In this document: piece by piece, positions 3,524 to 21,391 of the stretch
Position numbering within the stretch: position 1 is the stretch's first letter
Layout of the letters: each line of letters opens with the position of its first letter
Made by a program: the position numbers and the translations under genes
From: an uncultured Gammaproteobacteria bacterium
GTDB taxonomy: Bacteria; Pseudomonadota; Gammaproteobacteria; Magnimaribacterales; TMED112
Direction: 5' to 3'
Assembly (NCBI GenBank): GCA_964575305.1
Contig: CAZNPG010000002.1
Location: forward strand, 18,026-82,025
Length of the DNA stretch: 64,000 nucleotides
The notes under the pieces: model-generated
What the model was told of the DNA's origin: nothing
The model's input: the letters and a program-made list of their open reading frames with translations, nothing else
Database searches by the model: none

Positions 3524-3972
3524 TACGTTGGTTTTACTTCTATAGATATAGATTTAACTATTTCTGGATGAAGTTCAACGTTTATTGTAAATTCTCCGAC
3601 CTCTTTTATAGGTCCGGACAACAAAATTATAGATGACTTAGTAATAAAATCGTGACCTTCTGCATGCATAGCGTCTAAAATCTCATTTACACCAACTGAC
3701 CCAAAAAGCGTTCCACTTTCCTGAGCATTAGCAGATATAGTTAACTTAAGATCATTAAGATGAATTGCATTTGCTTCTGCAAGAGATAGTTCATCTTGAG
3801 CTTTTTTTAGATATTCTTCTTTCTTTTCTTCAAAATCTTTTATGTATTTATCAGTTGCAGGTAATGCTTTGTGATAAGGCAATAGAAAGTTACGTGCAAA
3901 GCCAGATTTAACATCGACAATATCACCAATATTTCCAAGATTTTTTATCTTGGTTACTAAAACTACTTTCAT
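3523..3972 (-). CDS. rplI: 50S ribosomal protein L9
   Basis: 149 aa. The N-terminus [32 protein letters not shown] matches the L9 consensus. Synteny is rpsF-rpsR-rplI-dnaB. Confidence 0.95.
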
Positions 3973-4175
3973 TTGTTTTCTTCGATTTTATGTTTGTCAG
4001 TGAATGGAAGTAGACCAAGCAACCTTGCTTTCTTTACTGCTTTTGTTAGCTTGCGCTGTTCTTTTGCGTTAAGTCTTGTATATCTTGAAGAGAGAATTTT
4101 TCCATTTTCAGATATAAAGCCTCTTAGAGTATCAGGATCTCTATAATCAATATTTACTTTTTTTTCTTCTGTCAT
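3969..4175 (-). CDS. rpsR: 30S ribosomal protein S18
   Basis: 68 aa. [39 protein letters not shown] matches the S18 core. It overlaps rplI by 4 nt. Confidence 0.95.
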
Positions 4176-4459
4176 TATGAGGCTAATTTTACAGTTAAAT
4201 GTCTAAATACATTTTGGTCATATCTAAATTTTTCTTCGAGTAAATCTAGTGTTTCAGGCTCTACATTCACATCTAGATGAACATAGTTAGCATAATTCAT
4301 GTTATTGATTGGGTAAGCAAGCTGTCTTTTCCCCAACAATTTTGTGTCAACTAAGTCACCTTTATTGTCAGAAATAAGTTTTTTTAGACCATCAATGAAA
4401 TCATCAACTTCATCCATTGTATTGGGGTTTAAAAGAAGCATTAATTCGTATTTTTGCAT
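4175..4459 (-). CDS. rpsF: 30S ribosomal protein S6
   Basis: [13 protein letters not shown]... matches the S6 N-terminus (E. coli MRHYEIVFMVHP). I prefer the ATG at 4459 over the upstream GTG at 4462 used by the track. That ATG overlaps the ftsA TGA stop (TGATG). Confidence 0.9.
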
Positions 4460-5655: not shown

Positions 5656-6276
5656 TTAACTATTTTTTAATACGTATCCTTGATGGTATCTTAAATCTAG
5701 AATAATTGGCTTTGAATCATTTTGTTCTAAATTTTTTGTAATCTTATTCAATTTTTCTAGACGATTATCTAAGTCTGTCTTACCAATGTAGGCATTAACT
5801 TTCTTAGTTTGTACTTCCCATCCTGATAACTCAGAATAATTAAGAGCAATAAGATCTGTAAGATATTTTTTAATAGTATTGGCCTGAGATATAGTTTTAT
5901 TCGATATATCATTTTCTTTTATTGATAATTTTGGAATCTGAAGGGATGAGGGCATAAAAAATAGATCAAATTTATGATCAAAATAAAAATTCTTATTACT
6001 TCTAAATATTGGGTCTTTCAATACTAGGTTGTATGACAAGTCTTTCCTAGAATCTGTCTTAGAGAAAGCTTTAACCCAGTCTTTTGTTTTTACATAGGCA
6101 CCTAAATTTCTTCCCTTATAAAGATTTATTTTTATGTCACTTACACATTCCATGCAATTCACACTCATTGAAATATTTGCAGAAATAATTTTTTTATCGT
6201 TTTTTAAAAAACCAAACATGTAGATAAAGCATGTAGATAAAAAAATGGTTAAAAGTATTTTATATTGAGTCTTCAA
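5656..6276 (-). CDS. ftsQ: Cell division protein FtsQ (short, 206 aa)
   Basis: It has an N-terminal TM segment and the C-terminal motif ILDLRYHQGYVL (cf. FtsQ VDLRY..G). It sits between ddl and ftsA. Confidence 0.75.
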   Translation of the reverse strand: MKTQYKILLTIFLSTCFIYMFGFLKNDKKIISANISMSVNCMECVSDIKINLYKGRNLGAYVKTKDWVKAFSKTDSRKDLSYNLVLKDPIFRSNKNFYFDHKFDLFFMPSSLQIPKLSIKENDISNKTISQANTIKKYLTDLIALNYSELSGWEVQTKKVNAYIGKTDLDNRLEKLNKITKNLEQNDSKPIILDLRYHQGYVLKNS

Positions 6277-7153
6277 TGATTCTTGTAATTAGTTCCTGAT
6301 AATTTATGCCTGAAATTTTTGCTGCTAGTGGGAAAAGACTGTTTTCTGTAAATCCAGGGACAGTATTTATTTCAAGAACTCCAAAATCTTTTCCATTGAA
6401 GACAAAATCTACTCTTCCCCAAGTCTGACAACCATGTTGATAAAAAGCTTTTAATGCTATTTTTTGGAGTTCTTTCTTGATCTCTTTATCAACAACTTCA
6501 ACTTTTTTTGTATTTTTACTTACATATTTAGCCTGATAGTCATAAAAGCCTTTATTATCATTTGCGATTATTTCTAATGGTTCAAGAGCCTCACCTTTTA
6601 AAATTCCAACTGTATATTCTGCCGTGTTGTATGCTTCCTCGATTATCACATCTTCTGAAAATTTTCTTGCTTCTTTTATTGCTTGATCTAATTGTTTAAA
6701 GCCTGTTACCTTAGATACTCCAAAGCTAGATCCATTGCTATTAGGTTTAACAAAAAAATTCTCTCTTGATAAAAAGAACTCATTTTTTAAATCTGGTTTC
6801 TTATTTTTACGTATTATTTTATAAGGAGGTGTGGGTATTTTATTTTTTTTCATTAAAGCTTTTGAAGAAATCTTATCCCAACAAAGTTTCGCAGAATCTT
6901 CACCTGAACCAGTGAACTTTATACCATTATCTGCTAAAAGTTTTTGAGTCTCTCCATCTTCTCCTCCCAAACCATGAACAGCAATAAATACAACTGTATC
7001 TTCTTTTATTAATTCTATTTTTAGATCTTTAATATTCAGAAGAGATGCGCAAAACTTTGATTGATCAATATTTTTTAATATACCTTCTGCACTTTGTGCG
7101 GAAATTTCATTTTCAACAGAGTCTCCTCCGAAAATAATTACAACATCTCTCAT
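6260..7153 (-). CDS. ddl: D-alanine--D-alanine ligase
   Basis: 297 aa. VFIAVHGLGGEDGETQKLLADNGIKFTGSG matches the Ddl N-domain, and the ATP-grasp C-terminal part is present (WGRVDF, LEINTVPG). Confidence 0.9.
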   Translation of the reverse strand: MRDVVIIFGGDSVENEISAQSAEGILKNIDQSKFCASLLNIKDLKIELIKEDTVVFIAVHGLGGEDGETQKLLADNGIKFTGSGEDSAKLCWDKISSKALMKKNKIPTPPYKIIRKNKKPDLKNEFFLSRENFFVKPNSNGSSFGVSKVTGFKQLDQAIKEARKFSEDVIIEEAYNTAEYTVGILKGEALEPLEIIANDNKGFYDYQAKYVSKNTKKVEVVDKEIKKELQKIALKAFYQHGCQTWGRVDFVFNGKDFGVLEINTVPGFTENSLFPLAAKISGINYQELITRIIEDSI

Positions 7154-8538
7154 TTATATATAGCCAGTACTGAATTCGATATATCTACAATGTTTCCTGC
7201 ACCCTGTGTAATTAGAATTTCTTCATCTCCCATCACAGAATCTAAATGCTTGCATATTTCTTTTAAATTTTTAGCAAAAAAAGCATTTCTTCCTTTATCT
7301 ACTAAAGCATTCACAAATGCGTAAGCAGTAATGTTTTCTGGGTTTTGCTCGCCTGCTGAATAGATATCTAAAACAACTAAATTATCAACCTCGGATAAGC
7401 ATTCTATAAATTCATCAAATAAAAAAATTGACCTGGAATACCTATGAGGTTGAAAAATCATTGAAATCTTCTTCTTTGGATTCGTGGCTTTTACAGCATC
7501 TATGGTGGCTTTTATCTCTGTTGGGTGATGCCCATAATCATCGATGAGTTTAACTCTATTTTTATTTATAATGATTTCTCCTTTATGCTCCATTCTTCTT
7601 GAAACACCACTAAAATTCATGAAGGATTCTTTGATAATTTTTATATTAATTCCTGCTTTTTGAGAAACGATGAATGCTGCTGTAGCATTTAGAGCATTAT
7701 GACGGCCAGCTAATGCCAATTTAAAGCTAGTTTCTTTCCCAGTAGAATTCTTAACAATTACAAATTCTTGAAATACATCATTCTGTTTAAGTTCTTTAAT
7801 GAAGTAATCAGCCTTTTTATCGAACCCATAGGAAATTTTTGGTCTTGAGAGTTTCTCATATACTGATTTTGATCTCTCACCATCAATACACATGATTGCA
7901 TTACCATAGAAAGGAAGGTTTTCTAAAAATTGCAGAAAAGTAGAATCAAGTTTTTCTAAATCATTCGAATAGAAATCTAGATGATCATTATCTATATTTG
8001 TAACAATACTTATTTCTGGATTAAGGTGTAAAAATGAAGCATCGCTCTCATCAGCTTCTACAATTAAATATTCACTTGACCCTAAAATGCTCTTATTTTC
8101 TTGTCCTAATATTTTCCCCCCAATTATAAATGTTGGGTCTAATTTTGCTCTAATAAAAATATCAGCAATTAAGCTAGTTGTTGTAGTTTTGCCATGCGAA
8201 CCAGCAACAGCAATACTTTGAAACCCTCTCATTAAACTTGATAGCATTTCTGCTCTGGGGATAAGTGTTGTATTTAAAGACTTTGCAGCCTTCATCTCAG
8301 GATTTGATTCACTAACTGCAGAAGAATATACAACCACATCAGCATCTCTAACATTCTTTTCATTATGACCAATAAAAATCTTTGCCCCGAGATTCTGAAG
8401 CCTACTTGTATTTTTATTTTTTACTAGATCGCTTCCACTTACATTAAATCCCTGATTTATAAGCATTTCTGCAATACCAACCATGCCAACGCCGCCTATA
8501 CCTATAAAGTGGATTTTCTTAATGTTGCTTAATTTCAT
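7150..8538 (-). CDS. murC: UDP-N-acetylmuramate--L-alanine ligase
   Basis: 462 aa. It has IHFIGIGGVGMVGIAEML and the Mur ligase P-loop GSHGKTTTTSL. Position in the dcw cluster fits. Confidence 0.95.
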   Translation of the reverse strand: MKLSNIKKIHFIGIGGVGMVGIAEMLINQGFNVSGSDLVKNKNTSRLQNLGAKIFIGHNEKNVRDADVVVYSSAVSESNPEMKAAKSLNTTLIPRAEMLSSLMRGFQSIAVAGSHGKTTTTSLIADIFIRAKLDPTFIIGGKILGQENKSILGSSEYLIVEADESDASFLHLNPEISIVTNIDNDHLDFYSNDLEKLDSTFLQFLENLPFYGNAIMCIDGERSKSVYEKLSRPKISYGFDKKADYFIKELKQNDVFQEFVIVKNSTGKETSFKLALAGRHNALNATAAFIVSQKAGINIKIIKESFMNFSGVSRRMEHKGEIIINKNRVKLIDDYGHHPTEIKATIDAVKATNPKKKISMIFQPHRYSRSIFLFDEFIECLSEVDNLVVLDIYSAGEQNPENITAYAFVNALVDKGRNAFFAKNLKEICKHLDSVMGDEEILITQGAGNIVDISNSVLAIYK

Positions 8539-9517
8539 TTGCTATTTTTCTTGCAGATTCCAAGTGTATACTTTTCCTCATTTTTTTACTTAAATCTTGA
8601 TGATTAAGACCATCAAATTCTCTTATAATTTTTAGAAAATTATCTTCATCGAATTCTTTTTCATTTAGAATTATTCCACCACCATCTTGGCATGCTATTT
8701 CTGCATTTTTTAACTGATGGTTATCTATAGAATCCGGTAAAGGAATAAATATTGCTGGCAAACCTAAGCTTTGAACTTCTGCAACAGTTGATGCCCCTGC
8801 TCTGCAAATAATAAACTTAGCTTTTGACATCACTTCCGGCATATTTTTAATAAATTCTAGATATTTAATATTTTTATTTGAAATGAAATTGTTATTGTTG
8901 CCAGTCTGAAAGATGACCTTTGTTTTTAAAGATAATTTTTCAAAAATATTTGGTAGGTTTTTATTGAAAAAGGAGGCTCCCTGACTGCCACCCAAGACAA
9001 GAATATGTTCCTTTTCTATTAAACCTGAATCAAAATTATTAAAATCTGGTCGAACTGGTTGGCCATGGTTAAATTCTTTCTTTATATTTAATTTAAAGGT
9101 TGAAAAAACCTTCTTTGCAAAAGGCAAACTTAATTTATTAGCCGATCCTAATATAGAGTTTTGTTCATGTATGTAAATTGGCTTGAAGAGTAGGATTGAT
9201 GAAATCAATCCTACTACTGAGACATAGTTACCCATTAATAAGATACTTGATGGCTTAAATTTTATGAGCAAAAATATTGTCGAAAAAATACCTAAGATTG
9301 AATTTATTGGCCATGATAATTTTTCTAATAAGCTTTTACCTCTGAAACCAGATACATTTAAATGCTTAACTTCAAAGCCTGAATCTCGATAAATTTTTTT
9401 TTCTAATTCTCTGTTAGAAGCAATGAAAATCACATTTTCTTTACCAAATTCCTTAGCAATAGAAAGTGCTGGGTAAATATGGCCACCTGTTCCAGCTGCA
9501 AAAATAGCAATTTTCAT
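8519..9517 (-). CDS. murG: UDP-GlcNAc:lipid I N-acetylglucosaminyltransferase MurG
   Basis: 332 aa. The N-terminal AAGTGGHIYPALSIA motif (GT28) is present. It sits between ftsW and murC. Confidence 0.9.
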   Translation of the reverse strand: MKIAIFAAGTGGHIYPALSIAKEFGKENVIFIASNRELEKKIYRDSGFEVKHLNVSGFRGKSLLEKLSWPINSILGIFSTIFLLIKFKPSSILLMGNYVSVVGLISSILLFKPIYIHEQNSILGSANKLSLPFAKKVFSTFKLNIKKEFNHGQPVRPDFNNFDSGLIEKEHILVLGGSQGASFFNKNLPNIFEKLSLKTKVIFQTGNNNNFISNKNIKYLEFIKNMPEVMSKAKFIICRAGASTVAEVQSLGLPAIFIPLPDSIDNHQLKNAEIACQDGGGIILNEKEFDEDNFLKIIREFDGLNHQDLSKKMRKSIHLESARKIANEIKQH

Positions 9518-9518
9518 A

Positions 9519-10640
9519 TTATTTTATTTTATTCCTAAACTCCCAGCTTGCTCTCAAAGTAATAGCTAGAGCAATGAAATTCATAATAACACTACTTCTT
9601 CCATAGCTAATGAAAGGAAGGGTTAAGCCTTTTGTAGGTATGACGCCTAAATTTACAAAAATATTTAAAGCTGTTTGAATAAAAAATAATAATGCAAATG
9701 AAGTTATTAATAAGCTATTAAAAAAATAATTCTGTTTATTTGAAGTTTCAGCAAGCTTAAAAAGCCTCCAAAGAATCACAAAATAGCATGCCATAAGAAC
9801 AGAAAACCCAACCAATCCTGTTTCTTCTAGAAAAATTGAAAAAATAAAATCAGTATGTGCTTCTGGCAGAAAAAAATATTTTTGTGTACTCTCCCCTATG
9901 CCTAAGCCTGTTAAACCACCCTGGACTGAAGCAATTAGGGCATTAATTAATTGATAATCCGAGCCTGTCATGTCATCCCATGGGTTTGCATATGATAAAA
10001 CCCTATCTAATCTCTCTGGATTAAAATAAATAGCAATTGATAAGAATGTGATAAAAATTACAGTCAAAATAGACAGCTGTGATATTTTTGCGCCACCAAT
10101 AAATAATATGCAAATTGCTATGGAAAAAAGTATTGCAGTATTTCCATAGTCAGGCTCCAAAAATAATAACAATCCTATAATAGTTGTAACAGCAATTGGT
10201 TTGATAAATCCTTTCCAACTTGATTCAAGCTGCTCTCTTCTTCTTAAGCAGTAACTGCAAAGATATAAAGGCAGAAATACTTTCACTATTTCAGAAGGTT
10301 GAATATTTATTGGTCCAATAGATAACCATCTTGTGGCTCCATTTCTCTCAATGCCTATACCTGGAACTAAGACTAAAGCAAGTAATATTGAACTTAGCAA
10401 TAATAGAATTAAGCCATTCTGCCTATAAAAGGAAATTGGTATAAACAGGAATACTGCACATGCTATTAGAGATATAGATAAAGCAACTATTTGCCTTTGT
10501 AAGAAAAAAAAAGGATTTCCATAATCAGCGTATGCAATAACATTTGATGATGAATAAATAAAAACAAGACTTATGCTCGTTATGATTAAAATTGGCAGCA
10601 ATAAAGTGATATCCAATAAGTTTTCTTTTTTCCTAATCAA
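9519..10640 (-). CDS. ftsW: SEDS peptidoglycan polymerase / cell division protein FtsW
   Basis: 373 aa and polytopic. The conserved SEDS motif FLPEAHTDFIFSIFLEETGLVG is present. Position in the dcw cluster fits. Confidence 0.9.
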   Translation of the reverse strand: MIRKKENLLDITLLLPILIITSISLVFIYSSSNVIAYADYGNPFFFLQRQIVALSISLIACAVFLFIPISFYRQNGLILLLLSSILLALVLVPGIGIERNGATRWLSIGPINIQPSEIVKVFLPLYLCSYCLRRREQLESSWKGFIKPIAVTTIIGLLLFLEPDYGNTAILFSIAICILFIGGAKISQLSILTVIFITFLSIAIYFNPERLDRVLSYANPWDDMTGSDYQLINALIASVQGGLTGLGIGESTQKYFFLPEAHTDFIFSIFLEETGLVGFSVLMACYFVILWRLFKLAETSNKQNYFFNSLLITSFALLFFIQTALNIFVNLGVIPTKGLTLPFISYGRSSVIMNFIALAITLRASWEFRNKIK

Positions 10641-11706
10641 GATATGCAGCCCTCAACTTATTAAAATGCTCTCCTCGTTCGATATAATTAGCATAATCAT
10701 TTCCGCTTGGATTTCCTGGACTGAATAAAAGATTATGAAAATCTTCTTCACTTCTTAAAATCTCAAATATTTCATGCAACTCATTACAAATTGTAATGTT
10801 TGGGTGTGAAATAAGTTTAGAAAGCTCTTTTTTGTGGTGGCCAAAAATAAATATTCTTTTTGGTCCTGTAATTTCAAGCTTCTTATATTTTTCTTTTTTT
10901 GGATCTCCACAAATTATTAAATTTCCCATAAATTTGAGTTTGCTTAGAGCATATAAAAGTGAAGCAGAATTAGTAGATTTAGAATCATTGAAAACGCCTT
11001 TAGAGATATTTTCAAGCCTAAATGGTAAGTTAGTAAATGTTATATCTTCCGACAAATTGACTGATTCTACTTTGGATACAAAATTGATAGCTATTTCTTT
11101 ATAGGAATCATTTTGACAAAAGACAGTTTGACCCAGTTCTGAACAAATCTTTAGTTTGGCATTTTTATAGTTTTCAAAATTTCTATGGAAATCAATATGA
11201 TCGTTTTGAATATTAGTAATAAATGAAAAATCAAAATTGTTATCTTTCATTTTTTCAAGCTGGAAACTAGATACTTCTATGACGCTATATTTATTTTCAT
11301 GATTTATATTGTCAAGCAAAGGGTTGCCTATATTTCCTAAAGCAATGGAACTGCTTAAATGGTTTAGAGCTTGGTTTAGATAATGGACGAGTGTACTCTT
11401 GCCGTTTGTTCCGGTAACTCCAATCTTTATAGATTTATTTTCTTTAAAAAATATATCTACATCAGTTTCATAATCTAACTCAGAAATGATTTTAGGAGAG
11501 AGATACTTTCTTATATCAATACCTGGAGAGATATACAGTTTTTTATATTCAAAAATTTTTTTGTTTTTGATGTCGTTTAAAGTATTTTTTTTGTCAGAAA
11601 GTTTTGATGCATCTTCATCAAATATATCAAACTTGATAGATTTTTTTGTTAGATATCGTTCAAAAGATTTTCCAGTAGAACCATAGCCGACAATAAGTGA
11701 TTTCAT
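10633..11706 (-). CDS. murD: UDP-N-acetylmuramoylalanine--D-glutamate ligase (short, 357 aa)
   Basis: It has the Mur ligase P-loop GVTGTNGKSTLVHYL and an N-terminal Rossmann-like IVGYGSTGKS. It sits between mraY and ftsW. Confidence 0.85.
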   Translation of the reverse strand: MKSLIVGYGSTGKSFERYLTKKSIKFDIFDEDASKLSDKKNTLNDIKNKKIFEYKKLYISPGIDIRKYLSPKIISELDYETDVDIFFKENKSIKIGVTGTNGKSTLVHYLNQALNHLSSSIALGNIGNPLLDNINHENKYSVIEVSSFQLEKMKDNNFDFSFITNIQNDHIDFHRNFENYKNAKLKICSELGQTVFCQNDSYKEIAINFVSKVESVNLSEDITFTNLPFRLENISKGVFNDSKSTNSASLLYALSKLKFMGNLIICGDPKKEKYKKLEITGPKRIFIFGHHKKELSKLISHPNITICNELHEIFEILRSEEDFHNLLFSPGNPSGNDYANYIERGEHFNKLRAAYLD

Positions 11707-12788
11707 TATCTTATTTTAAGCAACGACAAACCAACTAAAACAAAAATAAAAGTTAGTATCCAAAATCTCACTATAATTTTTGGCTCCTTCCAACCAATAA
11801 GTTCAAAATGATGATGTATTGGAGCCATCCTAAAAATTCTTTTTTTCCTAAGCTTAAAAGAAGAGACTTGCAAAATTACACTCATTGCTTCCATTATGAA
11901 AACCATAGACATAACAGCAAAAACAATTTCATGCCTCACAACTATTGCTATAAGAGCAATGAAAGCCCCCATTGAAAGTGATCCAACATCTCCCATGAAA
12001 ATTTGTGCAGGATAGGCATTAAACCATAAGAACCCTATACCTGCTCCTATCAATGCACCACATATAACTAAAAGTTCTCCTGTTCCATCAATGTAAGGTA
12101 TATATAGGTATTCAGAAACTATTGTATTTCCTGCTGCCCATGCAATGAGACCTAAAGCTGCTGTAATTAATATTACTGGTAAGATTGCTAGACCATCTAA
12201 GCCGTCTGTTAAATTCACAGCATTTGAACTACCGACAATAATAAAGACCGATATAGGAATGAATAATAATCCAAGTGATAGTGAGACCTCTTTAAAAAAA
12301 GGAACAATATAAGCTAGCTCGAAGCTTTGAAAAATATAGAAATATAGTGCTATAGAAATTATTGATGCAAATAAAATTTGGTATGAAATCTTAGTCCATG
12401 ATGATAAACCTTTTGAATTTTTTTCCTTAACTTTTTTATAATCATCTAAAAAACCAAGAAAGGCGAAAAGAAATAAACAAAGTAATGCTATTAATAAAAA
12501 CCTATTGGAAAAGTCCCCCCAGAGTAAACTTGAAAAAATTACACTTCCAATTATTAGTAAACCACCCATAGTTGGTGTTCCATCCTTAATCTTATGAGAT
12601 TCAGGCCCTCTATCTCCAATAGCTTGCTGAAATTGGATTGATCTTATCTTGCTTATGAAGAACTCACCCATGAAAAGAACAAGAAGCAATCCAGTTAAAG
12701 TTGATAAAAATGTTCGTGTAGTTAAATAAGAGAATAAATTAAGGAAAGGAGATTTCTCTGAAAGTAGATTTAGTAATAATTCAATCAT
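11706..12788 (-). CDS. mraY: Phospho-N-acetylmuramoyl-pentapeptide transferase
   Basis: 360 aa and polytopic. The MraY motifs KDGTPTMGG, NAVNLTDGLDGLA and MGDVGS are present. Confidence 0.95.
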   Translation of the reverse strand: MIELLLNLLSEKSPFLNLFSYLTTRTFLSTLTGLLLVLFMGEFFISKIRSIQFQQAIGDRGPESHKIKDGTPTMGGLLIIGSVIFSSLLWGDFSNRFLLIALLCLFLFAFLGFLDDYKKVKEKNSKGLSSWTKISYQILFASIISIALYFYIFQSFELAYIVPFFKEVSLSLGLLFIPISVFIIVGSSNAVNLTDGLDGLAILPVILITAALGLIAWAAGNTIVSEYLYIPYIDGTGELLVICGALIGAGIGFLWFNAYPAQIFMGDVGSLSMGAFIALIAIVVRHEIVFAVMSMVFIMEAMSVILQVSSFKLRKKRIFRMAPIHHHFELIGWKEPKIIVRFWILTFIFVLVGLSLLKIR

Positions 12789-13938
12789 CTAATAAAATTT
12801 TTAGGTATCTCTCCATTTTACTAGACCTAGAGCCTTTAAAATAGATTTTCTTGCCTGCCTTTAGCTGTTTAGATAAATATTCAATAGGAAAATCTTTCTC
12901 ATTCTGAAAAAATTCTACTCTATTACTTTCAAATTTATCTATTAATCCATTATAGATAGCTCCTGTTAGGAATATTTCATACTTATTAAGCTTCTTAATA
13001 AGATCAAAATGTATTTCATACTCTTTATCGCCTAGTTCAGCCATATCACCCAGAATAAGAATAGTTTCATTTGGATTTTCTTCATTTGCTGTTGCAAGAA
13101 CTGTATCTGGATGAGCATTATATGTTTGGTCAATAATTTGACCATTATGCTTATCTATTATGTTGCCTCTTCCGGTAGGATTTTTAAAAGAAATGCTGTC
13201 TAGTTCCATATCTATAGAGAGAAGCCCTAAAGTTTTTTTAAGAATTTCTTTATTTATTTCTAAAATGCTTTCTTTATTTACACTACGACCATCTATAAAA
13301 TTACTTTTATCTTTTAAACAATTTTTAAGTTTCATTTTTGTGTTAACAATATTCTCAACAGTACCAAATGTAGTTAAATGATTTTCTGCAATTGATGTCA
13401 AAATAAATACATCACAAAATAAATAATTAGAAATCAGGTCAAAATCATTTGGTTTTCTTGCTCCACATTCAACTACTAGATATTCACAATCTTTAGGCAT
13501 GCTAAGTATGGTAAAAGGAATTCCGAATTCGTTGTTTTCATTTTCTTTGCTTGCATGGCATGAAGGCCCCAGTATGGTTTTCAACATATCTTTAATAGTG
13601 GTCTTCCCATAGCTGCCAGTTATAAAGATAATTTTTGGTTTTAATGATAGAAGTTTGTAATTGCATATCTCCAGAAGACTCTTGTACACATCATTTACCT
13701 TTATTGCAGGACCATTAATAATTTTGGTTGTTAAGACAGCTGCACCATTATCTATCGCGTCTTTACAAAAATCTTCTCCATCATAATTGAGGCCTTTCAG
13801 AGGAATAAATAAGTCTCCTTTTTGAGCTAGTCTAGAATCAAAAATTATTCTTTTTACTGAATATTCTCTGATTTCTTTAGTGACATTAAGTACTGGTGAT
13901 AAATCATTTAAGTTAAACTTTTTACCTAGACCGTACAT
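12781..13938 (-). CDS. murF: UDP-MurNAc-tripeptide--D-alanyl-D-alanine ligase (short, 385 aa)
   Basis: It has the Mur ligase P-loop ITGSYGKTTIKDML. It sits between murE and mraY. Confidence 0.85.
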   Translation of the reverse strand: MYGLGKKFNLNDLSPVLNVTKEIREYSVKRIIFDSRLAQKGDLFIPLKGLNYDGEDFCKDAIDNGAAVLTTKIINGPAIKVNDVYKSLLEICNYKLLSLKPKIIFITGSYGKTTIKDMLKTILGPSCHASKENENNEFGIPFTILSMPKDCEYLVVECGARKPNDFDLISNYLFCDVFILTSIAENHLTTFGTVENIVNTKMKLKNCLKDKSNFIDGRSVNKESILEINKEILKKTLGLLSIDMELDSISFKNPTGRGNIIDKHNGQIIDQTYNAHPDTVLATANEENPNETILILGDMAELGDKEYEIHFDLIKKLNKYEIFLTGAIYNGLIDKFESNRVEFFQNEKDFPIEYLSKQLKAGKKIYFKGSRSSKMERYLKILLDD

Positions 13939-15320
13939 TTTTTAACTTCCTCATAATCTGAGTATTTTACAACCTTATTTTCAATGGCCTGATATTTCTC
14001 ATGGCCTTTCCCAGCAATTAGTAGTATTTCTTCATCCTTTAGATCATTAATTGCCTCTTCTATAGCAAGAGATCTATCAAGCTGTAAGGTGACTTTACTT
14101 GTATTTAAGATACCTTCTTGAATCATTTCAGCAATTAATCTCGGGTTTTCAGAGCGAGGATTATCAGAAGTAATGTAAATTTTATCGCAGTACTTTTCAG
14201 CAATTTCACCCATTATTTTTCTTTTACCAATATCTCTGTCACCACCAGCTCCAAAGACAATTGCCAGACTTTTAGGATTTTTTTCTCTTAAATTTAAGCA
14301 AACTTCTTCTAGTGCTTTTGGAGAATGTGCATAGTCAATATAAATATTTTTTCTAAACTCATCTAATCTACCCTTGGGCAAAACAATACCTTCCAATGCA
14401 TTAAAAAAATTGTCGCAATTATTATTAACTGCTTGGAAGTATGGAAGTGCAAGCAAAAGATTATAAATATTAAATTTTGAATGGACTCTGCTTTGCGATT
14501 GAAAGTTTCCCCATGGGGTTGTTGTATTAAATTTAATGTATCCATCTCTACTCTTTTCTTTTATTTGAAAAAAGATATCAGCGGACCTATCTTTTGCTGA
14601 TAAAGTAAAAACATTATCTATTAAAATTCTTTTTTTATTATTATGAATAATCTCATCATCAATATTTAAAGATATAGTTTTCAATTTTGTATCAAGAAGT
14701 AATTTAAATTTAGCGTTAATGTATTCTTCCATGCTTCCATGATAGTCAATATGATCCCTGGAAATATTCGTGAGAATTGCATGGTTAATGCTTAAACCTT
14801 GTAATCTGCCTTGGTCTATTCCAATTGATGATGCTTCAAAGAAAATATTTTTGATATCTTCTTTTTTGCAAATAGACATAAGGCGCCTAATAAAAAGTGC
14901 GTCTTCAGTAGTAAGCTGATTATTAAATAATTTTTTCTGGTTTAAATAAGTGCCAAGAGTTCCTGATGAGGAATAATCAAGTCCATTGTATTTAAATATT
15001 TGCGAGAGGAAATCTACTGTTGAAGTTTTTCCATTTGTTCCAGTAATAAAAATATTATCAAACTTAGAATGTTTAATGCCATAGTATTCATCTACCCACT
15101 CAATGTAATGTTTATTAAGATCTTTTATTTTTTGAAACTTTGGATTACTTGAAATAATGTCTTCTTGATCTATAAAAATTGATTTTGCTTTGCTTATATC
15201 TTCATTATTTAAGAACTTCACACCTCCTTTAATGGAAAGGAAAACGTCACCCTTATTTAAATAATTAGAATTTGAAACAAGATTTTCATTTGAATCTAAA
15301 TTTAAAAAAGGATTTTTCAT
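13926..15320 (-). CDS. murE: UDP-MurNAc-L-Ala-D-Glu--2,6-diaminopimelate ligase
   Basis: 464 aa. It has the P-loop ITGTNGKTSTVDFL and the MurE-specific DNPRSENP motif. Confidence 0.9.
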   Translation of the reverse strand: MKNPFLNLDSNENLVSNSNYLNKGDVFLSIKGGVKFLNNEDISKAKSIFIDQEDIISSNPKFQKIKDLNKHYIEWVDEYYGIKHSKFDNIFITGTNGKTSTVDFLSQIFKYNGLDYSSSGTLGTYLNQKKLFNNQLTTEDALFIRRLMSICKKEDIKNIFFEASSIGIDQGRLQGLSINHAILTNISRDHIDYHGSMEEYINAKFKLLLDTKLKTISLNIDDEIIHNNKKRILIDNVFTLSAKDRSADIFFQIKEKSRDGYIKFNTTTPWGNFQSQSRVHSKFNIYNLLLALPYFQAVNNNCDNFFNALEGIVLPKGRLDEFRKNIYIDYAHSPKALEEVCLNLREKNPKSLAIVFGAGGDRDIGKRKIMGEIAEKYCDKIYITSDNPRSENPRLIAEMIQEGILNTSKVTLQLDRSLAIEEAINDLKDEEILLIAGKGHEKYQAIENKVVKYSDYEEVKKCTV

Positions 15321-16900
15321 AAGTACTTTAATCTTTTCATGTATTTAGAAATTCTAGCAACGACAGGTGCTGAAACATCCCCTCCAAAATACTTATTAGG
15401 GTCGGGCTCATCAATCGAAACAATCATAATATATTTAGGAGTTTGGGCTGGGAAAATTGATGCAAAACTTGAAATATATTTCTCGGATGCATAACCAACA
15501 CCTTCTATATATTTTTCGGATGTCCCAGTTTTTCCAGCTATTTGAACTTCCTCATTTTTAAGATTTGATGCTGTTCCATCAAGGACAGTCATTCTTAGTG
15601 AATCTAAAATAAAATCTGCATTTGATTTAGTTAATATCCTTTTTCTAATTACTTGGTCATCAAGATAAAGTTTTGGTTCAATCATCACCCCTTCATTTGC
15701 AAAAGCACTATAAGCCCTAGCTAACTGAAGAGAATTTGATGTCAAACCATAACCATATCCCAAAGAAGCTTTATCAATGTCATAAAGCTTGGCAGCATCT
15801 ATCATTATGCCGCTATTATTGCTTAACCAGCTCATATTAAGATATTCACCAAAACCAAATAGTCTTAGATTCTCTCTAATTTGATCTGAAGAGAATTTAA
15901 TTGAAATCTTAGCTATACCAACTTGAGATGATTTAGAAATAGTTTCTGATAAAGAGATATTGCCAAAATTTTTACCTCCAGCTTCACTTCTTTTAATATC
16001 AGATAAAGTAATGAAGCCTGGGTTTGTATCAATCATAGAATTTTTCTCTATAAGATTTAGTCTAATTGCTCCTGCAACTGTTATTGGTTTAATTAGTGAT
16101 CCTGGTTCATAAAAATCTTCAATTGCTCTATTTCTTTCAATAACACGCTGAGGGTTATTTGGGTTGAAAGATGGGTAACTAACCATAGCTAATACATCTC
16201 CTGTTGATGCATTCATTATTACTGCAGAGCCTCCTTTTGCTTTGGAGTCTGAAATAGCTGTTTTTAATTCCTCAAAAAGTTTGAACTGCAAATTTGTATC
16301 TAAAGTTAAAGACAAACCTTCTGAATCTTCTAAATTTAAATAACTATCTAAACTTCCATATAACTTCTCTCCTCTCAGGCTCTTGTTATAAATTGATCTT
16401 TTGCTATCAATAATCAATAAATCATCCATTACTTTCTCGACACCTTCTAACCCACCATCAGTTCCTGAGAAACCAATTACAGTTCCAAAAATACTGCCAA
16501 ATGGATAGTATCTTTTGAAAGTATCCTCTCTAATAGGTGAGCAACTGCATGCTGCTTGAACTTTAGTTAGTATTTTCTGTGACACTTTATTTTCTAAGTA
16601 AAGTCTTCTTTTTGTATTTAGAAAAATGTCTTGTGAGTCATCAAGCAAAACTGTAAGAGCTTGCTCTTTTTCTTTCTCATTTTTAAATAGCAATGTTGGT
16701 CTAAGAATATCAGTTGCCAGCTCTATTCCATTTCTATCAAAGATTTTCTTTCTTGGATGAATGTTTAGTTTTGTCGCGGTGCTTCTTATTTCAGAAGCTT
16801 CTAAAAATAAATCCCTTTCCTGATTTAATTGGTAATAGCGTATTCCAGGAATTAATAGAAGAACTAAAAAAATAATAAAAAGCAGGCGTAGTTTACTCAT
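15317..16900 (-). CDS. ftsI: Peptidoglycan D,D-transpeptidase FtsI (PBP3)
   Basis: 527 aa. It has an N-terminal TM anchor, the SxxK motif (GSLIKP) and the KTGT motif (AGKTGTSEK). It lies after ftsL. Confidence 0.9.
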   Translation of the reverse strand: MSKLRLLFIIFLVLLLIPGIRYYQLNQERDLFLEASEIRSTATKLNIHPRKKIFDRNGIELATDILRPTLLFKNEKEKEQALTVLLDDSQDIFLNTKRRLYLENKVSQKILTKVQAACSCSPIREDTFKRYYPFGSIFGTVIGFSGTDGGLEGVEKVMDDLLIIDSKRSIYNKSLRGEKLYGSLDSYLNLEDSEGLSLTLDTNLQFKLFEELKTAISDSKAKGGSAVIMNASTGDVLAMVSYPSFNPNNPQRVIERNRAIEDFYEPGSLIKPITVAGAIRLNLIEKNSMIDTNPGFITLSDIKRSEAGGKNFGNISLSETISKSSQVGIAKISIKFSSDQIRENLRLFGFGEYLNMSWLSNNSGIMIDAAKLYDIDKASLGYGYGLTSNSLQLARAYSAFANEGVMIEPKLYLDDQVIRKRILTKSNADFILDSLRMTVLDGTASNLKNEEVQIAGKTGTSEKYIEGVGYASEKYISSFASIFPAQTPKYIMIVSIDEPDPNKYFGGDVSAPVVARISKYMKRLKYL

Positions 16901-17145
16901 TAATCTATATCAGGATCTTTCATTCCAATTGCTAAAGCTTTCTCATATATGAACGGTGATGATTTAATTAAAGCTATCTCAATATCTAATTTAGTATTTT
17001 GATTTTGAAGGTAAAAAATTTTTTCTTGCACATCATCTAAGTGGTTAAAACTTCTTTTGTATTCAAAGACAAGGAAGACTTTTACGAATGAAAGCATGAG
17101 TAAAATTATAAAAAATACAATTAAACCAATATTGATAATTTTCAT
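16900..17145 (-). CDS. ftsL: Cell division protein FtsL
   Basis: 81 aa. It has a single N-terminal TM followed by a short coiled-coil-like segment. It sits between rsmH and ftsI with 4-nt and 1-nt overlaps. The call rests mainly on position and architecture. Confidence 0.65.
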   Translation of the reverse strand: MKIINIGLIVFFIILLMLSFVKVFLVFEYKRSFNHLDDVQEKIFYLQNQNTKLDIEIALIKSSPFIYEKALAIGMKDPDID

Positions 17146-18038
17146 AATTTTTTAATTACTCTCATTTTAGCGCTTCTAGATCTGGGATTCATTGATATCT
17201 CATCATTAGTAGGCAACAACACCTTACTTACTGTAAATTTTTCTTTGGTGGTGTCATTAAAAATTGGAATTTTTTTCTCAACCAGATTAGGTTGGGTCTT
17301 AAAGCTTTGTTTGGCTATACGATCTTCAAGTGAATGGAACGAGATCACCACTATTTTTCCTGACTTTTTAAGCTTATTCTTCAAGACTTCAAGACACTTT
17401 GATAAACTTTCAAGCTCAGAATTTACGGCCATTCTTAAAGCCTGAAATGATTTTGTTGCAGAATGTTTTTTTGTTCTTTTTCTTTTTGCTAGCTTTATTA
17501 CATTTGCTAAGTCAGTAGTGCTTTTAAATTTCTTTACCTCTCTTCTTTCAACAATAAATTTTGCAATGCGCCTAGATTCTTCTTCCTCTCCTAACTTCCA
17601 CAATATTTCAGATAGTTCGCTTTCACTATAATTTTCAATAATGTCAGAGCAAGTTAATTCTTGGTTTCTATTAAATCTCATATCTAGAGGACCATCTTTC
17701 TGAAAACTAAACCCTCTTTCTGGCTCATCTAATTGAGGCGAGGATACGCCACAATCAATTAAGGCTCCCATCAATGAATCATCTTCAATAAAATTTCCAA
17801 TCTGAGAAAAGTTTGTTTTATGGAATTGGAAGTTATTTTTTTTAATTGCTTTAGATTCTTCCATAGCTTCATTATCAAGATCGAAAGCTATAAGTTTTCC
17901 ATTATTTGATAATCTTTCTAGAATTTTTTTTGAATGCCCTCCCCTTCCAAAAGTGCAGTCAACATAAATGCCATTTGGATCAGTAATTAACTGATCAATT
18001 GAATGGTCAAGAAGTACTGGTATATGCTTAATTCTCAA
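17142..18038 (-). CDS. rsmH: 16S rRNA (cytosine1402-N4)-methyltransferase RsmH/MraW
   Basis: 298 aa. It has HIPVLL and the SAM motif DCTFGRGGHS. The apparent TTG start at 18038 overlaps the last codons of ftsZ. Confidence 0.9.
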   Translation of the reverse strand: MRIKHIPVLLDHSIDQLITDPNGIYVDCTFGRGGHSKKILERLSNNGKLIAFDLDNEAMEESKAIKKNNFQFHKTNFSQIGNFIEDDSLMGALIDCGVSSPQLDEPERGFSFQKDGPLDMRFNRNQELTCSDIIENYSESELSEILWKLGEEEESRRIAKFIVERREVKKFKSTTDLANVIKLAKRKRTKKHSATKSFQALRMAVNSELESLSKCLEVLKNKLKKSGKIVVISFHSLEDRIAKQSFKTQPNLVEKKIPIFNDTTKEKFTVSKVLLPTNDEISMNPRSRSAKMRVIKKL

Positions 18039-19131
18039 TACTCCGTATTACTTCAAGAATATCTATACGTTTTAATTTATCTGGATCTACATAACCTTGA
18101 GTTTCATTTGTATTTAAAGATGAAATATCCCGAACTGGCCTTATGTAACTGGTGGAAAATTCATCTAGATTAAACTTTCTTAAGCCTGTAGCAATAATAA
18201 TAACTGATATTTCATCTCCAAACGATTCATCAATTGTCAGTCCTGGAATGGCTTCAACACCATGTTGACTTATTTTTTGTGCGTGAGTCATTATTTCATT
18301 TATTTCCTGCATTTCCATACCTGAAGGACCACAAATATTTACTAAAAGACCCTTAGCATTTTTTACTTCAGCACGGTTAAAAAATGGATTACCAAGAGCA
18401 TCATCCACAGCCTCAGCCGCTCTATTTGGTCCACTTGCTTTTCCAATACACATTATTGCCATTCCTTTTTGTGACATAGCAGCTTGGACATCAGCAAAAT
18501 CTACATTCATTGTTGCTGGATTAAGAATTACATTAGATACACCTTTCACTGCATTAGTTATAACTTCATTTACAGCATTAAAGCCTTCATTAAATTGAGC
18601 ATTTTCTGGAAAAATTTCAAAGATTTTTTCGTTATCTATTTCAATTAAAGAATCTACGCTTTGCATAAGCTTTGCAATACCTGCTGCTGCTTGTTCAGCT
18701 CTTTTTTCTTGTTCGTATTTAAATGGTGTAGTTACAACAGCAACTGTTAATATTCCTAGCTCTTTTGCTATTTTAGCTACTACTGGCGCTCCTCCTGTAC
18801 CAGTGCCTCCACCCATACCTGCCACAATAAAAAGCATTTCAGTATGTTCTAGTGATTCTTTTATTTCAGGTATGCTTAATTCTGTTGCAACCCTCCCTCT
18901 TTCTGGATCATTGCCTGCACCAAGCCCTTTAGTAAATTCTTCACCTAACTTAATTTTCTTTGCTTTTTGTACTTTTGAAAGATCCTGAGAATCTGTATTC
19001 GCACAAATAAATTCAACTCCTTTTATGCCTGACTTTATAATGTGATTTACACTGTTTCCACCACCACCCCCAACACCAATGACAGTTATCTTTGCTTGTT
19101 CATAATTAGAGTCAATAATTTGCCAGGTCAT
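18028..19131 (-). CDS. ftsZ: Cell division GTPase FtsZ
   Basis: 367 aa. It has VIGVGGGGGN, the tubulin signature AGMGGGTGTGGAPVVA and the NTDSQDL motif. It is located upstream of rsmH, not after ftsA. Confidence 0.95.
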   Translation of the reverse strand: MTWQIIDSNYEQAKITVIGVGGGGGNSVNHIIKSGIKGVEFICANTDSQDLSKVQKAKKIKLGEEFTKGLGAGNDPERGRVATELSIPEIKESLEHTEMLFIVAGMGGGTGTGGAPVVAKIAKELGILTVAVVTTPFKYEQEKRAEQAAAGIAKLMQSVDSLIEIDNEKIFEIFPENAQFNEGFNAVNEVITNAVKGVSNVILNPATMNVDFADVQAAMSQKGMAIMCIGKASGPNRAAEAVDDALGNPFFNRAEVKNAKGLLVNICGPSGMEMQEINEIMTHAQKISQHGVEAIPGLTIDESFGDEISVIIIATGLRKFNLDEFSTSYIRPVRDISSLNTNETQGYVDPDKLKRIDILEVIRSIEN

Positions 19132-19151
19132 ATTAAGATTTTAAATTAGAG

Positions 19152-19480
19152 AAATGAGTTGGTCTATAAGCCGGATTCTGTTTAAGCCATCATTTATCTA
19201 GATGTTTTGTCACCAAAACATTCATGCTGCCTACCCTGATCCTGCGCGAGCAACGCAATAAGATCTCTATTTGGCATTGCTTCGAGTGGGGTTTGCCGTG
19301 CCCTAATTTTAATTAGGCGGTAAGCTCTTACCTTACCTTTTCACCCTTACCAGATAAACTGGCGGTTTATTTTCTGTTGCACTAGCCGTAGACTCACGTC
19401 CCCCAGCTGTTAGCTGGCACTCTGCTCTTTGAAGTCCGGACTTTCCTCTTATAAAAAATAAGCGATAGCTCGACCAACTC
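19152..19480 (-). ncRNA. rnpB: RNase P RNA, bacterial type A
   Basis: The minus strand reads GAGUUGGUCG...GAGGAAAGUCCGGAC...GUGCCAGCUAACAGCUGGGG...AGUGCAACAGAAA...AAACCGCC...GGUAAGGGUGAAAAGGUAAGGUAAGAGCUUACCGCC...GGCACGGCAAACCCCAC...GCAAUGCCAAAUAG...ACAGAAUCCGGCUUAUAGACCAACUC. All universally conserved rnpB blocks are present. P1 pairs GAGUUGGUC with GACCAACUC. Ends are accurate to about 5 nt. Confidence 0.9.
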
Positions 19481-19488
19481 AGCGTCAT

Positions 19489-19497
19489 ATAATATCA
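19489..19497 (-). promoter_or_regulatory. Putative extended -10 promoter (TGATATTAT) for rnpB
   Basis: On the minus strand, TGaTATTAT ends 8 nt upstream of the predicted rnpB 5' G. Its TGA is the rsmI stop codon. No convincing -35 was seen. Confidence 0.3.
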
Positions 19498-20325
19498 AGA
19501 CTTTTTAGAAAAAGACAAAAATCTTTCATATAAAAAATTTTTGTTTATTCCAGTAATTTCGTAAGAAAGTTTTGCAAGCTCTTTATTGCTTAGTTTTCCT
19601 TTCAGATTTTCAAATAATTTATCTGCAACTGAAGTATCTTCTTCTAGTGATAGGAAATTAAGCATCAAGATAAATTCACCTTTTAGCAAACTTTTATCTT
19701 GGTTAAAATTTAACAATATTTCACCAGCTGTTCCTCTCAAGAACCTTTCATGAATCTTAGAAATCTCTTTTGCTATACATATATTAGCTTGATTGCCAAA
19801 TAAGCTGTCAATTATATTTAAAGTTGCAGTTAGCCTATGAGAAGATTCCAAAAAAATTGAAGTCCCAGTATCTGTTGAACATTTAGTAAAGATTTTTTTA
19901 ATTTCATTAGTTTTCTTTGGCAAAAATCCATAAAAGTGAAATGTATCTGTTGGCATACCACTGCCTACAAGAGCGGGAATAACTGATGTTGGTCCAGGCA
20001 GAGGAATTATTTTTATATTTTTTTTAATTAGGCTAGAAATTAACTTGTATCCAGGGTCAGATATTAATGGTGTGCCAGCTTCTGAAATTATTCCACCCTT
20101 TTTCCCATCCTCTAAAAGATTATTAATTTTATTCCTGTCTTTTAAGGTAGAGTGATCATTGTAAATAACAAGATTTTTAATTTTTAGATTATATTTCTTT
20201 AAAAGTTTCTGGGCAGAATGCCTGCTTTCAACAGCCAGGAAGTCTAATTCAGCAATTGTATTAATTGCCCTAATAGTAAAATCATCAAGATTGCCTACTG
20301 GAGAAGGTATAATATAGAAAATCAT
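19495..20325 (-). CDS. rsmI: 16S rRNA (cytidine1402-2'-O)-methyltransferase RsmI
   Basis: 276 aa. It has the tetrapyrrole-methylase-fold motifs (YIIPSPVGNLDD, SEAGTPLISDPGYKLI). It is divergent from an lpoA-like lipoprotein gene, as in E. coli and Pseudomonas. Confidence 0.9.
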   Translation of the reverse strand: MIFYIIPSPVGNLDDFTIRAINTIAELDFLAVESRHSAQKLLKKYNLKIKNLVIYNDHSTLKDRNKINNLLEDGKKGGIISEAGTPLISDPGYKLISSLIKKNIKIIPLPGPTSVIPALVGSGMPTDTFHFYGFLPKKTNEIKKIFTKCSTDTGTSIFLESSHRLTATLNIIDSLFGNQANICIAKEISKIHERFLRGTAGEILLNFNQDKSLLKGEFILMLNFLSLEEDTSVADKLFENLKGKLSNKELAKLSYEITGINKNFLYERFLSFSKKS

Positions 20326-21391
20326 GCTTAAAAAATTATTTTATTGTTTTTTATCTATTTTAATTATAACTAGTTGCTCGACAGCACCTAAAGAAAGTTC
20401 AATAAATTCTAAAATTATTGAAAAGACAGACAATAGTAAATTTGATGGAGTAACAGAACTCGGTGATTATTTTGAGCAAATCTATTATCAAAAAAAATTT
20501 ATCGTAGCTGCACCAGACCACAAAAAATTTGCTGAGTTTAATAGCTATTTCCAGTTAGGAATTCTTGCAGCAAAAGAAAAATATAAGATCAAGAATGAAG
20601 TAAGTTTTGTTAAACAAGATGATCTGGATCTTAGTGAAGCAAATAAGAATTTTTTGATAGGGCCTCTAAGCAAAGAAATTGTTTCAAGAATAGATGGTTT
20701 ACTATTATCTGATAAAGCTCTTCTACTAAATGATTCGGAAAAGAATTTTTCTATTTCTCTAAGCCAAAAATCTCAAAACAGAGCGTTAAATAAATATCTT
20801 AAAGATAAAGATATTAAAAGAATTGGGTTTATTAAGGATACGCAAAGCACAGTTAAAAGCAGCAACTCCTTTAGGAGTTTATGGTTTAGCAATGAAAAGG
20901 ATGCAATTACTATTGAAGTTGGTAAAGACCCATCGAAAAGAATTGAAAATTTTTTAGATGTCACTGAAAGCAGGGAAAGATTCAATCTCATTGACAAAGC
21001 TAGTTTCTCTAAAGTTGAATTTGTACCTAGAACAAGAGGAGATTTTGAGCAAATCGTTATCTTTCCTAAAAATCTTACACGGCTTTATGAAATAGCATCT
21101 CTCGTAAGATTTAATTATGGGCTCAATTATGAAATTTTTTCTTTTACATCAGATTTCAACCAAAAGATTGATAGCAATGAAATATCATTGCATAACATCA
21201 CACTAATTGATCACAGTTATGAAAATAAATATAGTTTTGATTTGCCAAAGAGTAGAAGCTTTTGCCTTGGTTTTGATGCAATGCTTCTAAGTTATGCTAT
21301 TGCCAATAATATTAAAGGCGAGATAAGAGGCTTGCTTGGCATCTATGAAATCAATGAAAATGAATTGACCTCAAGGTCTTATCTTAATTAA
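20324..21391 (+). CDS. lpoA: Lipoprotein, probable LpoA-like PBP1A activator (short, 355 aa)
   Basis: It has a signal peptide with a lipobox (LIITSC). The divergent rsmI/lpoA (yraL/yraM) synteny is conserved. No family motif could be verified by eye. Confidence 0.5.
   Translation: MLKKLFYCFLSILIITSCSTAPKESSINSKIIEKTDNSKFDGVTELGDYFEQIYYQKKFIVAAPDHKKFAEFNSYFQLGILAAKEKYKIKNEVSFVKQDDLDLSEANKNFLIGPLSKEIVSRIDGLLLSDKALLLNDSEKNFSISLSQKSQNRALNKYLKDKDIKRIGFIKDTQSTVKSSNSFRSLWFSNEKDAITIEVGKDPSKRIENFLDVTESRERFNLIDKASFSKVEFVPRTRGDFEQIVIFPKNLTRLYEIASLVRFNYGLNYEIFSFTSDFNQKIDSNEISLHNITLIDHSYENKYSFDLPKSRSFCLGFDAMLLSYAIANNIKGEIRGLLGIYEINENELTSRSYLN

Follow-up and report, generated by a model that had tools for sequence, protein, structure and literature searches.

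A 64,000-nucleotide stretch of contig CAZNPG010000002.1 (assembly GCA_964575305.1; hereafter the window), from an uncultured gammaproteobacterium, carries a cluster of division and cell wall (dcw) genes in which ftsZ lies at the 5' end, directly before rsmH, instead of after ftsA. The window has a G+C content (GC) of about 32%, and its nearest relatives are contigs labelled SAR86 cluster bacterium or TMED112. The minus-strand gene order is rsmI-rnpB-ftsZ-rsmH-ftsL-ftsI-murE-murF-mraY-murD-ftsW-murG-murC-ddl-FtsQ-like open reading frame (ORF)-ftsA-rpsF. A first-pass annotation made from the sequence alone had proposed this order, and profile matches bear it out, save that the ftsQ position holds an ORF that is only FtsQ-like. 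An ftsZ gene in last position and an mraZ gene in first position rank among the most conserved features of bacterial gene order and are the basis of models of FtsZ dosage. The window has neither: the stop codon of ftsA runs into rpsF and not into ftsZ followed by lpxC, and in place of mraZ with its operator and promoter (Pmra) there is a gap of just 19 nucleotides (nt) between rnpB and ftsZ. The same gene order occurs in more than 15 independent assemblies, a recurrence that puts the arrangement far beyond chance, and the position of ftsZ at the head of the cluster is a real, lineage-wide feature of the marine SAR86 bacteria.

Genes of the cluster

The FtsZ protein (18028-19131, minus strand, 367 amino acids) scores 354.2 bits against TIGR00065, above the equivalog cut-off of 295.2, and contains both the Tubulin (PF00091, 156 bits) and FtsZ_C (PF12327, 79 bits) domains. 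The GGGTGTG signature and the T7-loop region are kept, and residues G105-G113 and N209-V215 are invariant in an alignment (A1) that includes outgroup FtsZ sequences. The conserved C-terminal peptide that binds FtsA and ZipA (D-I/L-P-x-F-L-R-K/R) is not recognizable. The tail of the window protein ends in RIDILEVIRSIEN, with the proline and phenylalanine lost and a three-residue gap relative to DIPAFLRRQAD. Because the hidden Markov models do not define the family by this peptide, membership in the FtsZ family stands despite its degeneration. Core SAR86 proteins end (window 18031-18090, residues approximately 348-367) in IDILEV---IRSIEN or INIQDALRRFPN, and their linker is also short. Of the two binding partners, FtsA is encoded in the window, and SAR86 genomes have ZipA_C entries in the accessible part of a CheckM-type marker table (PMC11582366, Table S1). 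In the same part of the table, the TIGR00065 count is 1 in 46 of the 47 SAR86 genomes listed and never 2 (Freel et al. 2024), and LpxC (TIGR00325) is counted once in most of them. The mraZ markers PF02381 and TIGR00242 do not appear in that part of the table. For the genomes so listed, these counts indicate that ftsZ is single-copy and that lpxC lies elsewhere in the genome.

A tblastn search of the 64-kb window with LpxC, SecA, ArgJ and FtsZ queries from Halioglobus and an MraZ sequence of E. coli found neither lpxC nor mraZ, nor any further copy of ftsZ. This agrees with the first-pass annotation, which had remarked on the lack of mraZ and lpxC in the cluster, and leaves the gene at 18028-19131 as the only ftsZ copy in the window.

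Upstream of ftsZ is rnpB, encoding an RNase P RNA of type A (19151-19481, minus strand). It is matched at full length by the covariance model for bacterial RNase P RNA class A (RF00010, model positions 1-367), with 312 bits against a gathering score of 100. It is preceded by rsmI (19495-20325, minus strand), which encodes the 16S rRNA C1402 2'-O-methyltransferase (TIGR00096, 202 bits versus a cut-off of 168) and whose position is identical across all related loci.

Downstream of ftsZ, the dcw order from rsmH to ftsA is collinear, the ftsQ position aside, with all genes on the minus strand. The series consists of rsmH (mraW; 17142-18038; TIGR00006, 327 bits), ftsL (16900-17145), ftsI (15317-16900), which encodes a class B penicillin-binding protein (PF00905, NF011685), the block murE, murF, mraY, murD, ftsW, murG, murC and ddl (6260-15320), and finally ftsA (4459-5655; TIGR01174, 314 bits). 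Members of the mur block were assigned by their best NCBIfam matches, and all overlap or abut. The ftsL assignment is weak, as its TIGR02209 score of 23 bits is below the cut-off; it draws on position and on DivIC/FtsL matches of the homologue at locus L022, one of the mraZ-bearing relatives described below. MurD (10633-11706, 357 amino acids) and MurF (12781-13938, 385 amino acids) are approximately 70-85 amino acids below the usual length and fall below the NCBIfam cut-offs, with the alignment to the models limited to their N-terminal halves.

The ORF between ddl and ftsA (5656-6276, minus strand, 206 amino acids) is divergent and short. It has no match among the Pfam and NCBIfam models, including POTRA_1 and FtsQ_DivIB_C, and it resembles FtsQ only by position, by a hydrophobic, transmembrane-like N-terminal segment and by the C-terminal sequence LDLRYxxG, an instance of the motif (I/L)D(I/L)RYxxG that is also found in Halioglobus FtsQ. 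It is 24% identical to a 205-amino-acid ORF at the same place in the mraZ-bearing relative L101. In the SAR86 clade at 62-65% identity, there is no ORF in the ftsQ position and just a 48-nt gap between ddl and ftsA (L017 12265-12313). SAR86 thus appears to be losing FtsQ or to have lost it.

At the 3' end of the cluster, the TGA of ftsA overlaps the ATG of rpsF (TGATG), a junction read correctly in the first-pass annotation. The rpsF gene (4175-4459, minus strand; TIGR00166) is followed without spacers by rpsR, present as an ORF, and by rplI, dnaB and alr, whose identities are confirmed by profile match. From the ATG of ftsZ (19131) to the end of alr (1147) there are 19 genes in approximately 18 kb, overlapping or abutting with every spacer at most 1 nt, and the dcw cluster is fused to the rpsF-rpsR-rplI-dnaB-alr set (window 1147-19131, minus strand). 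As there is no spacer between ftsA and this set, the ribosomal protein genes must have their promoters within ftsA.

At the other flank, rsmI on the minus strand and a 355-amino-acid ORF on the plus strand (20324-21391) are divergent. Their start codons overlap in the palindrome CATG (20323-20326), which leaves zero intergenic region for either promoter. The ORF has no family match, begins with a lipoprotein-like N-terminus (MLKKLFYCF) and occupies the position of lpoA.

Distribution of the arrangement in SAR86 and its relatives

Contigs of genomes named SAR86 or TMED112, derived from both single-cell genomes and metagenome-assembled genomes (L001-L007), have the same order with FtsZ proteins 84-95% identical to that of the window, and in each the Rfam match to rnpB ends exactly 19 nt before the ftsZ ATG. 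More divergent loci (L008-L014, including a polished contig of 1.13 Mb), with FtsZ identities of 68, 65, 62 and 59%, present the same context and the same 19-nt spacing. In the most divergent SAR86 clade examined (L017 and L018, contigs of 1.04 Mb and 0.43 Mb), the order is ftsZ-rsmH-...-murC-ddl-ftsA-rpsF-rpsR-rplI-dnaB-alr-pyrG-kdsA. Below approximately 54% identity, FtsZ matches belong to Halieaceae, Porticoccaceae and other Gammaproteobacteria. When RsmH was used as a protein query, all matches were relatives at 85-100% identity and none gave outgroup context. A search with an N-terminal fragment of MurC returned mostly fragments, among which P0241 gave the ftsA end of the divergent SAR86 clade. 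One SAR86 FtsZ (P0028) is tagged 'Bacteroidota bacterium' in one source and looks mislabelled.

Both ends of the cluster are found in their canonical form in Halioglobus, where one locus (L016) reads ftsQ-ftsA-ftsZ-lpxC and another (L102) reads yraN-lpoA-rsmI-rnpB-(TTGACA-18-TATAGT)-mraZ-rsmH. We also scanned metagenomes with an RsmH alignment and obtained 80 loci from outside SAR86, 72 of them with enough upstream sequence to be scored. The gene directly upstream of rsmH is mraZ in 66 of these 72 loci and ftsZ in four. Approximately 24 of the 66 mraZ-rsmH loci have an rnpB motif just before mraZ, three of which were verified with Rfam. The Halioglobus locus and these many metagenomic examples confirm rsmI-rnpB-mraZ as the ancestral junction, as the first-pass annotation had it.

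Loci in which ftsZ directly precedes rsmH while mraZ is still present are of particular value for ordering events. Two of them (L022 and L023, GC 31-32%) read petC-sspA-orf(-)-rsmI-rnpB-mraZ-ftsZ-rsmH-ftsL-ftsI. The gap between rnpB and mraZ in loci of this type contains four GTGTG boxes with a 10-nt period, which we take to be the classical MraZ operator layout, followed by the promoter TTGCAA-17-TATATT (L022 3326-3414; L099 9432-9519). The -10 element of this promoter is at -12 to -7 of the mraZ ATG, a leaderless geometry. Further members of the L022 lineage (L099, L100 and L101, on contigs that include one of 65 kb and, for L100, the 820-kb contig Ga0494230_0035) have in common with SAR86 the flank murA...rplM-rpsI-petABC-sspA, and they also carry the second derived junction, ftsA-rpsF-rpsR-rplI-dnaB-alr-pyrG-kdsA. 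The rnpB sequences of this lineage are 78-79% identical to that of SAR86, compared with 67-72% for other outgroups. A third lineage of marine origin from Tara samples (L075 and L103, GC 37%) also has the order mraZ-ftsZ-rsmH. In L103 (2740-6771), mraY, ftsW and murG directly follow ftsI, and the cluster lacks murE, murF and murD; in L075, the FtsZ tail carries a duplicated IDILDVP motif.

These relatives resemble SAR86 in their low GC, in the placement of ftsZ directly before rsmH, and in the same ftsA-rpsF junction and flanks. They differ in keeping mraZ, the four GTGTG boxes with their promoter, a Shine-Dalgarno sequence before ftsZ, and the canonical FtsZ C-terminal peptide (LDVPTFMRKQVD; retained in L022 and L103), all four of which have been lost in the window.

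Since two derived junctions are shared, common ancestry of the ftsZ relocation is the parsimonious reading, and relatives with the order rnpB-mraZ-ftsZ-rsmH indicate that insertion of ftsZ preceded loss of mraZ. On this reading, ftsZ entered between mraZ and rsmH first, and deletion of mraZ, its operator and its promoter followed later, on the SAR86 branch. The series would begin with the canonical order rsmI-rnpB-(Pmra)-mraZ-rsmH...ftsQ-ftsA-ftsZ-lpxC, as in Halioglobus. It would pass through an intermediate, rnpB-(four GTGTG boxes and promoter)-mraZ-ftsZ-rsmH...ftsA-rpsF, as in the AT-rich marine gammaproteobacteria. On the SAR86 branch, deletion of mraZ, operator and promoter would have left ftsZ exactly 19 nt behind rnpB.

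The rnpB-ftsZ junction and the start of rsmH

A promoter scan revealed a promoter-like site for rnpB, TTGTCT-18-TGaTATTAT (19489-19518, minus strand), with a predicted start at approximately 19481 that corresponds to rnpB +1. The site lies wholly within the 3' end of the rsmI coding sequence, and the TGA stop codon of rsmI supplies the TG of the extended -10 element. Both the -35 and the -10 elements of this putative promoter are conserved in all SAR86 loci aligned.

The spacer between rnpB and ftsZ (19132-19150, minus strand) is invariant in length, at 19 nt, across an alignment of 14 loci. It consists of a conserved block, TCTAATTTAAAAT, followed by six variable nucleotides. It has no Shine-Dalgarno sequence, whereas ftsZ genes of the L022 type have a strong one (AGGGG), and it is too short for a terminator. 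The promoter scan also identified a -10-like hexamer, TAAAAT (19138-19143), at -12 to -7 of the ftsZ ATG. A -35-like element, TAGACC (19161-19166), lies 17 nt from the hexamer inside helix P1 of rnpB, and the start implied by this pair is the A of the ftsZ ATG itself. Positions T-12, A-11 and T-7 are invariant in all 14 loci, with TAGAAT and TAAACT as variants of the hexamer.

Because no terminator fits into 19 nt, read-through from the rnpB promoter into ftsZ is expected. RNA polymerase starting at the putative promoter in the 3' end of rsmI would read into ftsZ, and the -35/-10 pair that straddles the 3' end of rnpB may add a leaderless ftsZ start. The ftsZ gene would then be the promoter-proximal protein gene of a string of 19 genes and approximately 18 kb, in which no intergenic signals are possible. 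First position alone would give ftsZ the highest dosage, with translational coupling supplying the genes that follow, and position would take the place of the MraZ repressor as well as of the multiple ftsQAZ promoters. The first-pass annotation had called ftsZ the first cistron of the cluster. It is indeed the first protein gene, approximately 13.5 kb upstream of ftsA, but rnpB lies 19 nt ahead of it with no room for a terminator. That control of FtsZ:FtsA stoichiometry has been rewired is a reasonable expectation from this layout.

We somewhat favor co-transcription driven by rnpB as the main route of ftsZ expression, and consider the junction promoter a possible, though not the expected, additional or alternative route. 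More speculatively, rnpB may act as both promoter and 5' leader for the entire operon of division and cell-wall genes. A single rnpB-ftsZ precursor would start from a growth-rate-type promoter in rsmI, and the RNase P RNA would be cleaved off, which would hard-wire FtsZ to an RNA of the translation machinery. In a streamlined cell with few regulators, divisome stoichiometry would then be controlled by position together with stop/start coupling (with an AUU reinitiation codon for rsmH) and no longer by MraZ and the ftsQAZ promoters.

In all lineages, the reading frame of rsmH extends over the end of ftsZ. A TTG start for rsmH with an 11-nt overlap, as given in the first-pass annotation, does exist in the window (at 18038), but this codon is not conserved, being TAG, TCG, TTA or TTC, a stop or non-start codon, in most relatives, and the invariant candidate is instead an ATT. 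The candidate coupling site in the 3' end of ftsZ (18030-18044, minus strand) comprises GGAG (18044-18041), 8 nt, and ATT (18032-18030), which overlaps the TAA of ftsZ. In 12 of 12 loci, ATTAA is kept together with GGAG or GAGG 8 nt upstream, and GGAG is built from rare CGG/AGG arginine codons of the FtsZ tail. The ATT is likely the real start of rsmH, and the conserved arrangement suggests either an AUU start codon or coupling of RsmH to FtsZ by termination and reinitiation. The rsmH gene would be translated via GGAG-8 nt-ATT overlapping the ftsZ stop codon.

Alternative explanations and comparison with known clusters

The relocation series, combined with expression of ftsZ determined by position and by rnpB, is in our judgment probably the best overall explanation of the locus. 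Chimeric contigs do occur in these data, so a false join at rnpB/ftsZ, ftsZ/rsmH or ftsA/rpsF has to be considered. One such contig, L015, encodes an FtsZ whose N-terminal half is that of SAR86 and whose C-terminal half is of the L022 type; as P0058 it was a candidate for a deep lineage with the 19-nt junction and a canonical FtsZ tail, and it was rejected. Another, L020, joins mraZ-ftsZ' to ftsZ-rsmH in a palindrome and has little weight as support. However, the three junctions, where the first-pass annotation had advised a check for misassembly, are replicated across samples and methods in single-cell genomes, in short-read metagenome-assembled genomes and in polished contigs 1.04 and 1.13 Mb long, so that an artefact can be dismissed with near certainty. 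It is also very unlikely that the window gene is an extra paralogue accompanying a canonical ftsA-ftsZ-lpxC locus elsewhere, a concern raised in the same annotation. The atypical C-terminal peptide and the 64 kb of genome in view could be taken to favor this, but rpsF directly follows ftsA in the window and in two other lineages, the protein passes the TIGR00065 equivalog cut-off, all SAR86-like FtsZ proteins checked from the protein search have the same gene context, and no genome among the 47 listed in that part of the table has a TIGR00065 count of 2. The model of the first-pass annotation itself, in which mraZ was lost and ftsZ was translocated in a single step into the vacated slot behind rnpB, is highly improbable, although ftsZ occupies the exact position of Halioglobus mraZ in the window and in all core SAR86 loci. 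Lineages with mraZ-ftsZ-rsmH, an intact MraZ operator and the shared ftsA-rpsF junction place insertion before loss, and the site into which ftsZ moved is downstream of the mraZ position and not the mraZ position itself.

A closer competitor concerns transcription: ftsZ might be expressed mainly from its own promoter, TAGACC-17-TAAAAT, as a leaderless mRNA beginning at the A of the ATG, with little read-through from rnpB. The hexamer is exactly at -12 to -7, its key positions are invariant while -6 to -1 vary freely at constant spacer length, and SAR86 ftsZ lacks the Shine-Dalgarno sequence that is strong in relatives retaining mraZ. Moreover, the first operon gene of those relatives, mraZ, has a promoter of the same -12 to -7 geometry. 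Against this, the -35 element is weak, and the missing Shine-Dalgarno sequence is not diagnostic, since starts without one are the rule in this genome. Promoter-like matches also occur at chance frequency in such AT-rich DNA (17 found versus 19 expected in shuffled sequences), and the leaderless geometry is seen in no other window gene, ftsZ being the sole case among 19 genes with upstream gaps. Leaderless mRNAs are usually translated poorly in Gammaproteobacteria, and read-through from rnpB could not be prevented without a terminator. We therefore regard expression mainly from this promoter as a conceivable but doubtful account.

Several considerations also weigh against the relocation series with position- and rnpB-driven expression. 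The chance frequency of promoter-like matches and the singular leaderless geometry count here as well, and, although the key -10 positions are without substitution, we estimate that with approximately seven substitution events this conservation is not statistically significant. Co-transcription, processing of the RNase P RNA and the leaderless start are all things that we infer from sequence. The L103 lineage could represent an independent event. The absence of mraZ is established for the 64-kb window only. Finally, outgroup loci, too, show no terminator behind rnpB in a simple scan, so that loss of a terminator is not demonstrable, and an argument from such a loss was dropped.

Relative to the canonical dcw cluster of E. 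coli, Pseudomonas and Halioglobus (L102), the SAR86 cluster keeps the gene set and is strictly collinear from rsmH to ftsA, the ftsQ position aside. With L102 it also shares the upstream rsmI-rnpB and, further up, rplM-rpsI-petABC-sspA. In contrast to the canonical cluster, it has ftsZ at the 5' and not the 3' end and lacks mraZ, the mraZ operator and Pmra. No lpxC adjoins it, ftsA leads straight into rpsF-rpsR-rplI-dnaB-alr, and FtsQ is barely recognizable. Except that ftsZ has moved and mraZ is lost, the SAR86 cluster is a canonical dcw cluster.

In E. coli, promoters inside ddlB, ftsQ and ftsA, together with Pmra and RNase E processing, set the FtsZ:FtsA ratio. As in E. coli, one cluster must yield far more FtsZ than FtsA in SAR86. 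However, SAR86 ftsZ is 13.5 kb upstream of ftsA, and the ratio would have to result from polarity, decay and coupling rather than from promoters close to ftsZ. The minimal division cluster of Mycoplasma, mraZ-mraW-MG_223-ftsZ (PMC8475190), is likewise a shortened and tightly packed division operon in a streamlined genome. However, it has mraZ first and ftsZ last, whereas SAR86 retains the peptidoglycan genes in full and has ftsZ at the opposite end.

The rearrangement apparently has not been described so far. We found no paper that reports ftsZ before rsmH in SAR86 or elsewhere in a search that did not extend to the broad dcw survey of Megrian et al. 2022, and the paper on a SAR86 isolate never mentions ftsZ, dcw or mraZ (PMC11582366). 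That isolate, Ca. Magnimaribacter mokuoloeensis HIMB1674, makes the predictions given here testable. There is also a consequence for field measurements. A 2026 metatranscriptome study takes the ratio of ftsZ to RNase P transcripts in each taxon as an index of growth, with values given for SAR86 (PMC13349992). Since rnpB and ftsZ lie 19 nt from each other in SAR86 and are probably transcribed together, the two terms of this ratio would not be independent there.

Extant intermediates reveal the order in which the rearrangement took place, and the outcome may be viewed as a natural experiment in which divisome stoichiometry would be set by position alone after loss of a regulator. The SAR86 group is both abundant and regulator-poor, and it would thus provide a natural test of position-based dosage control.

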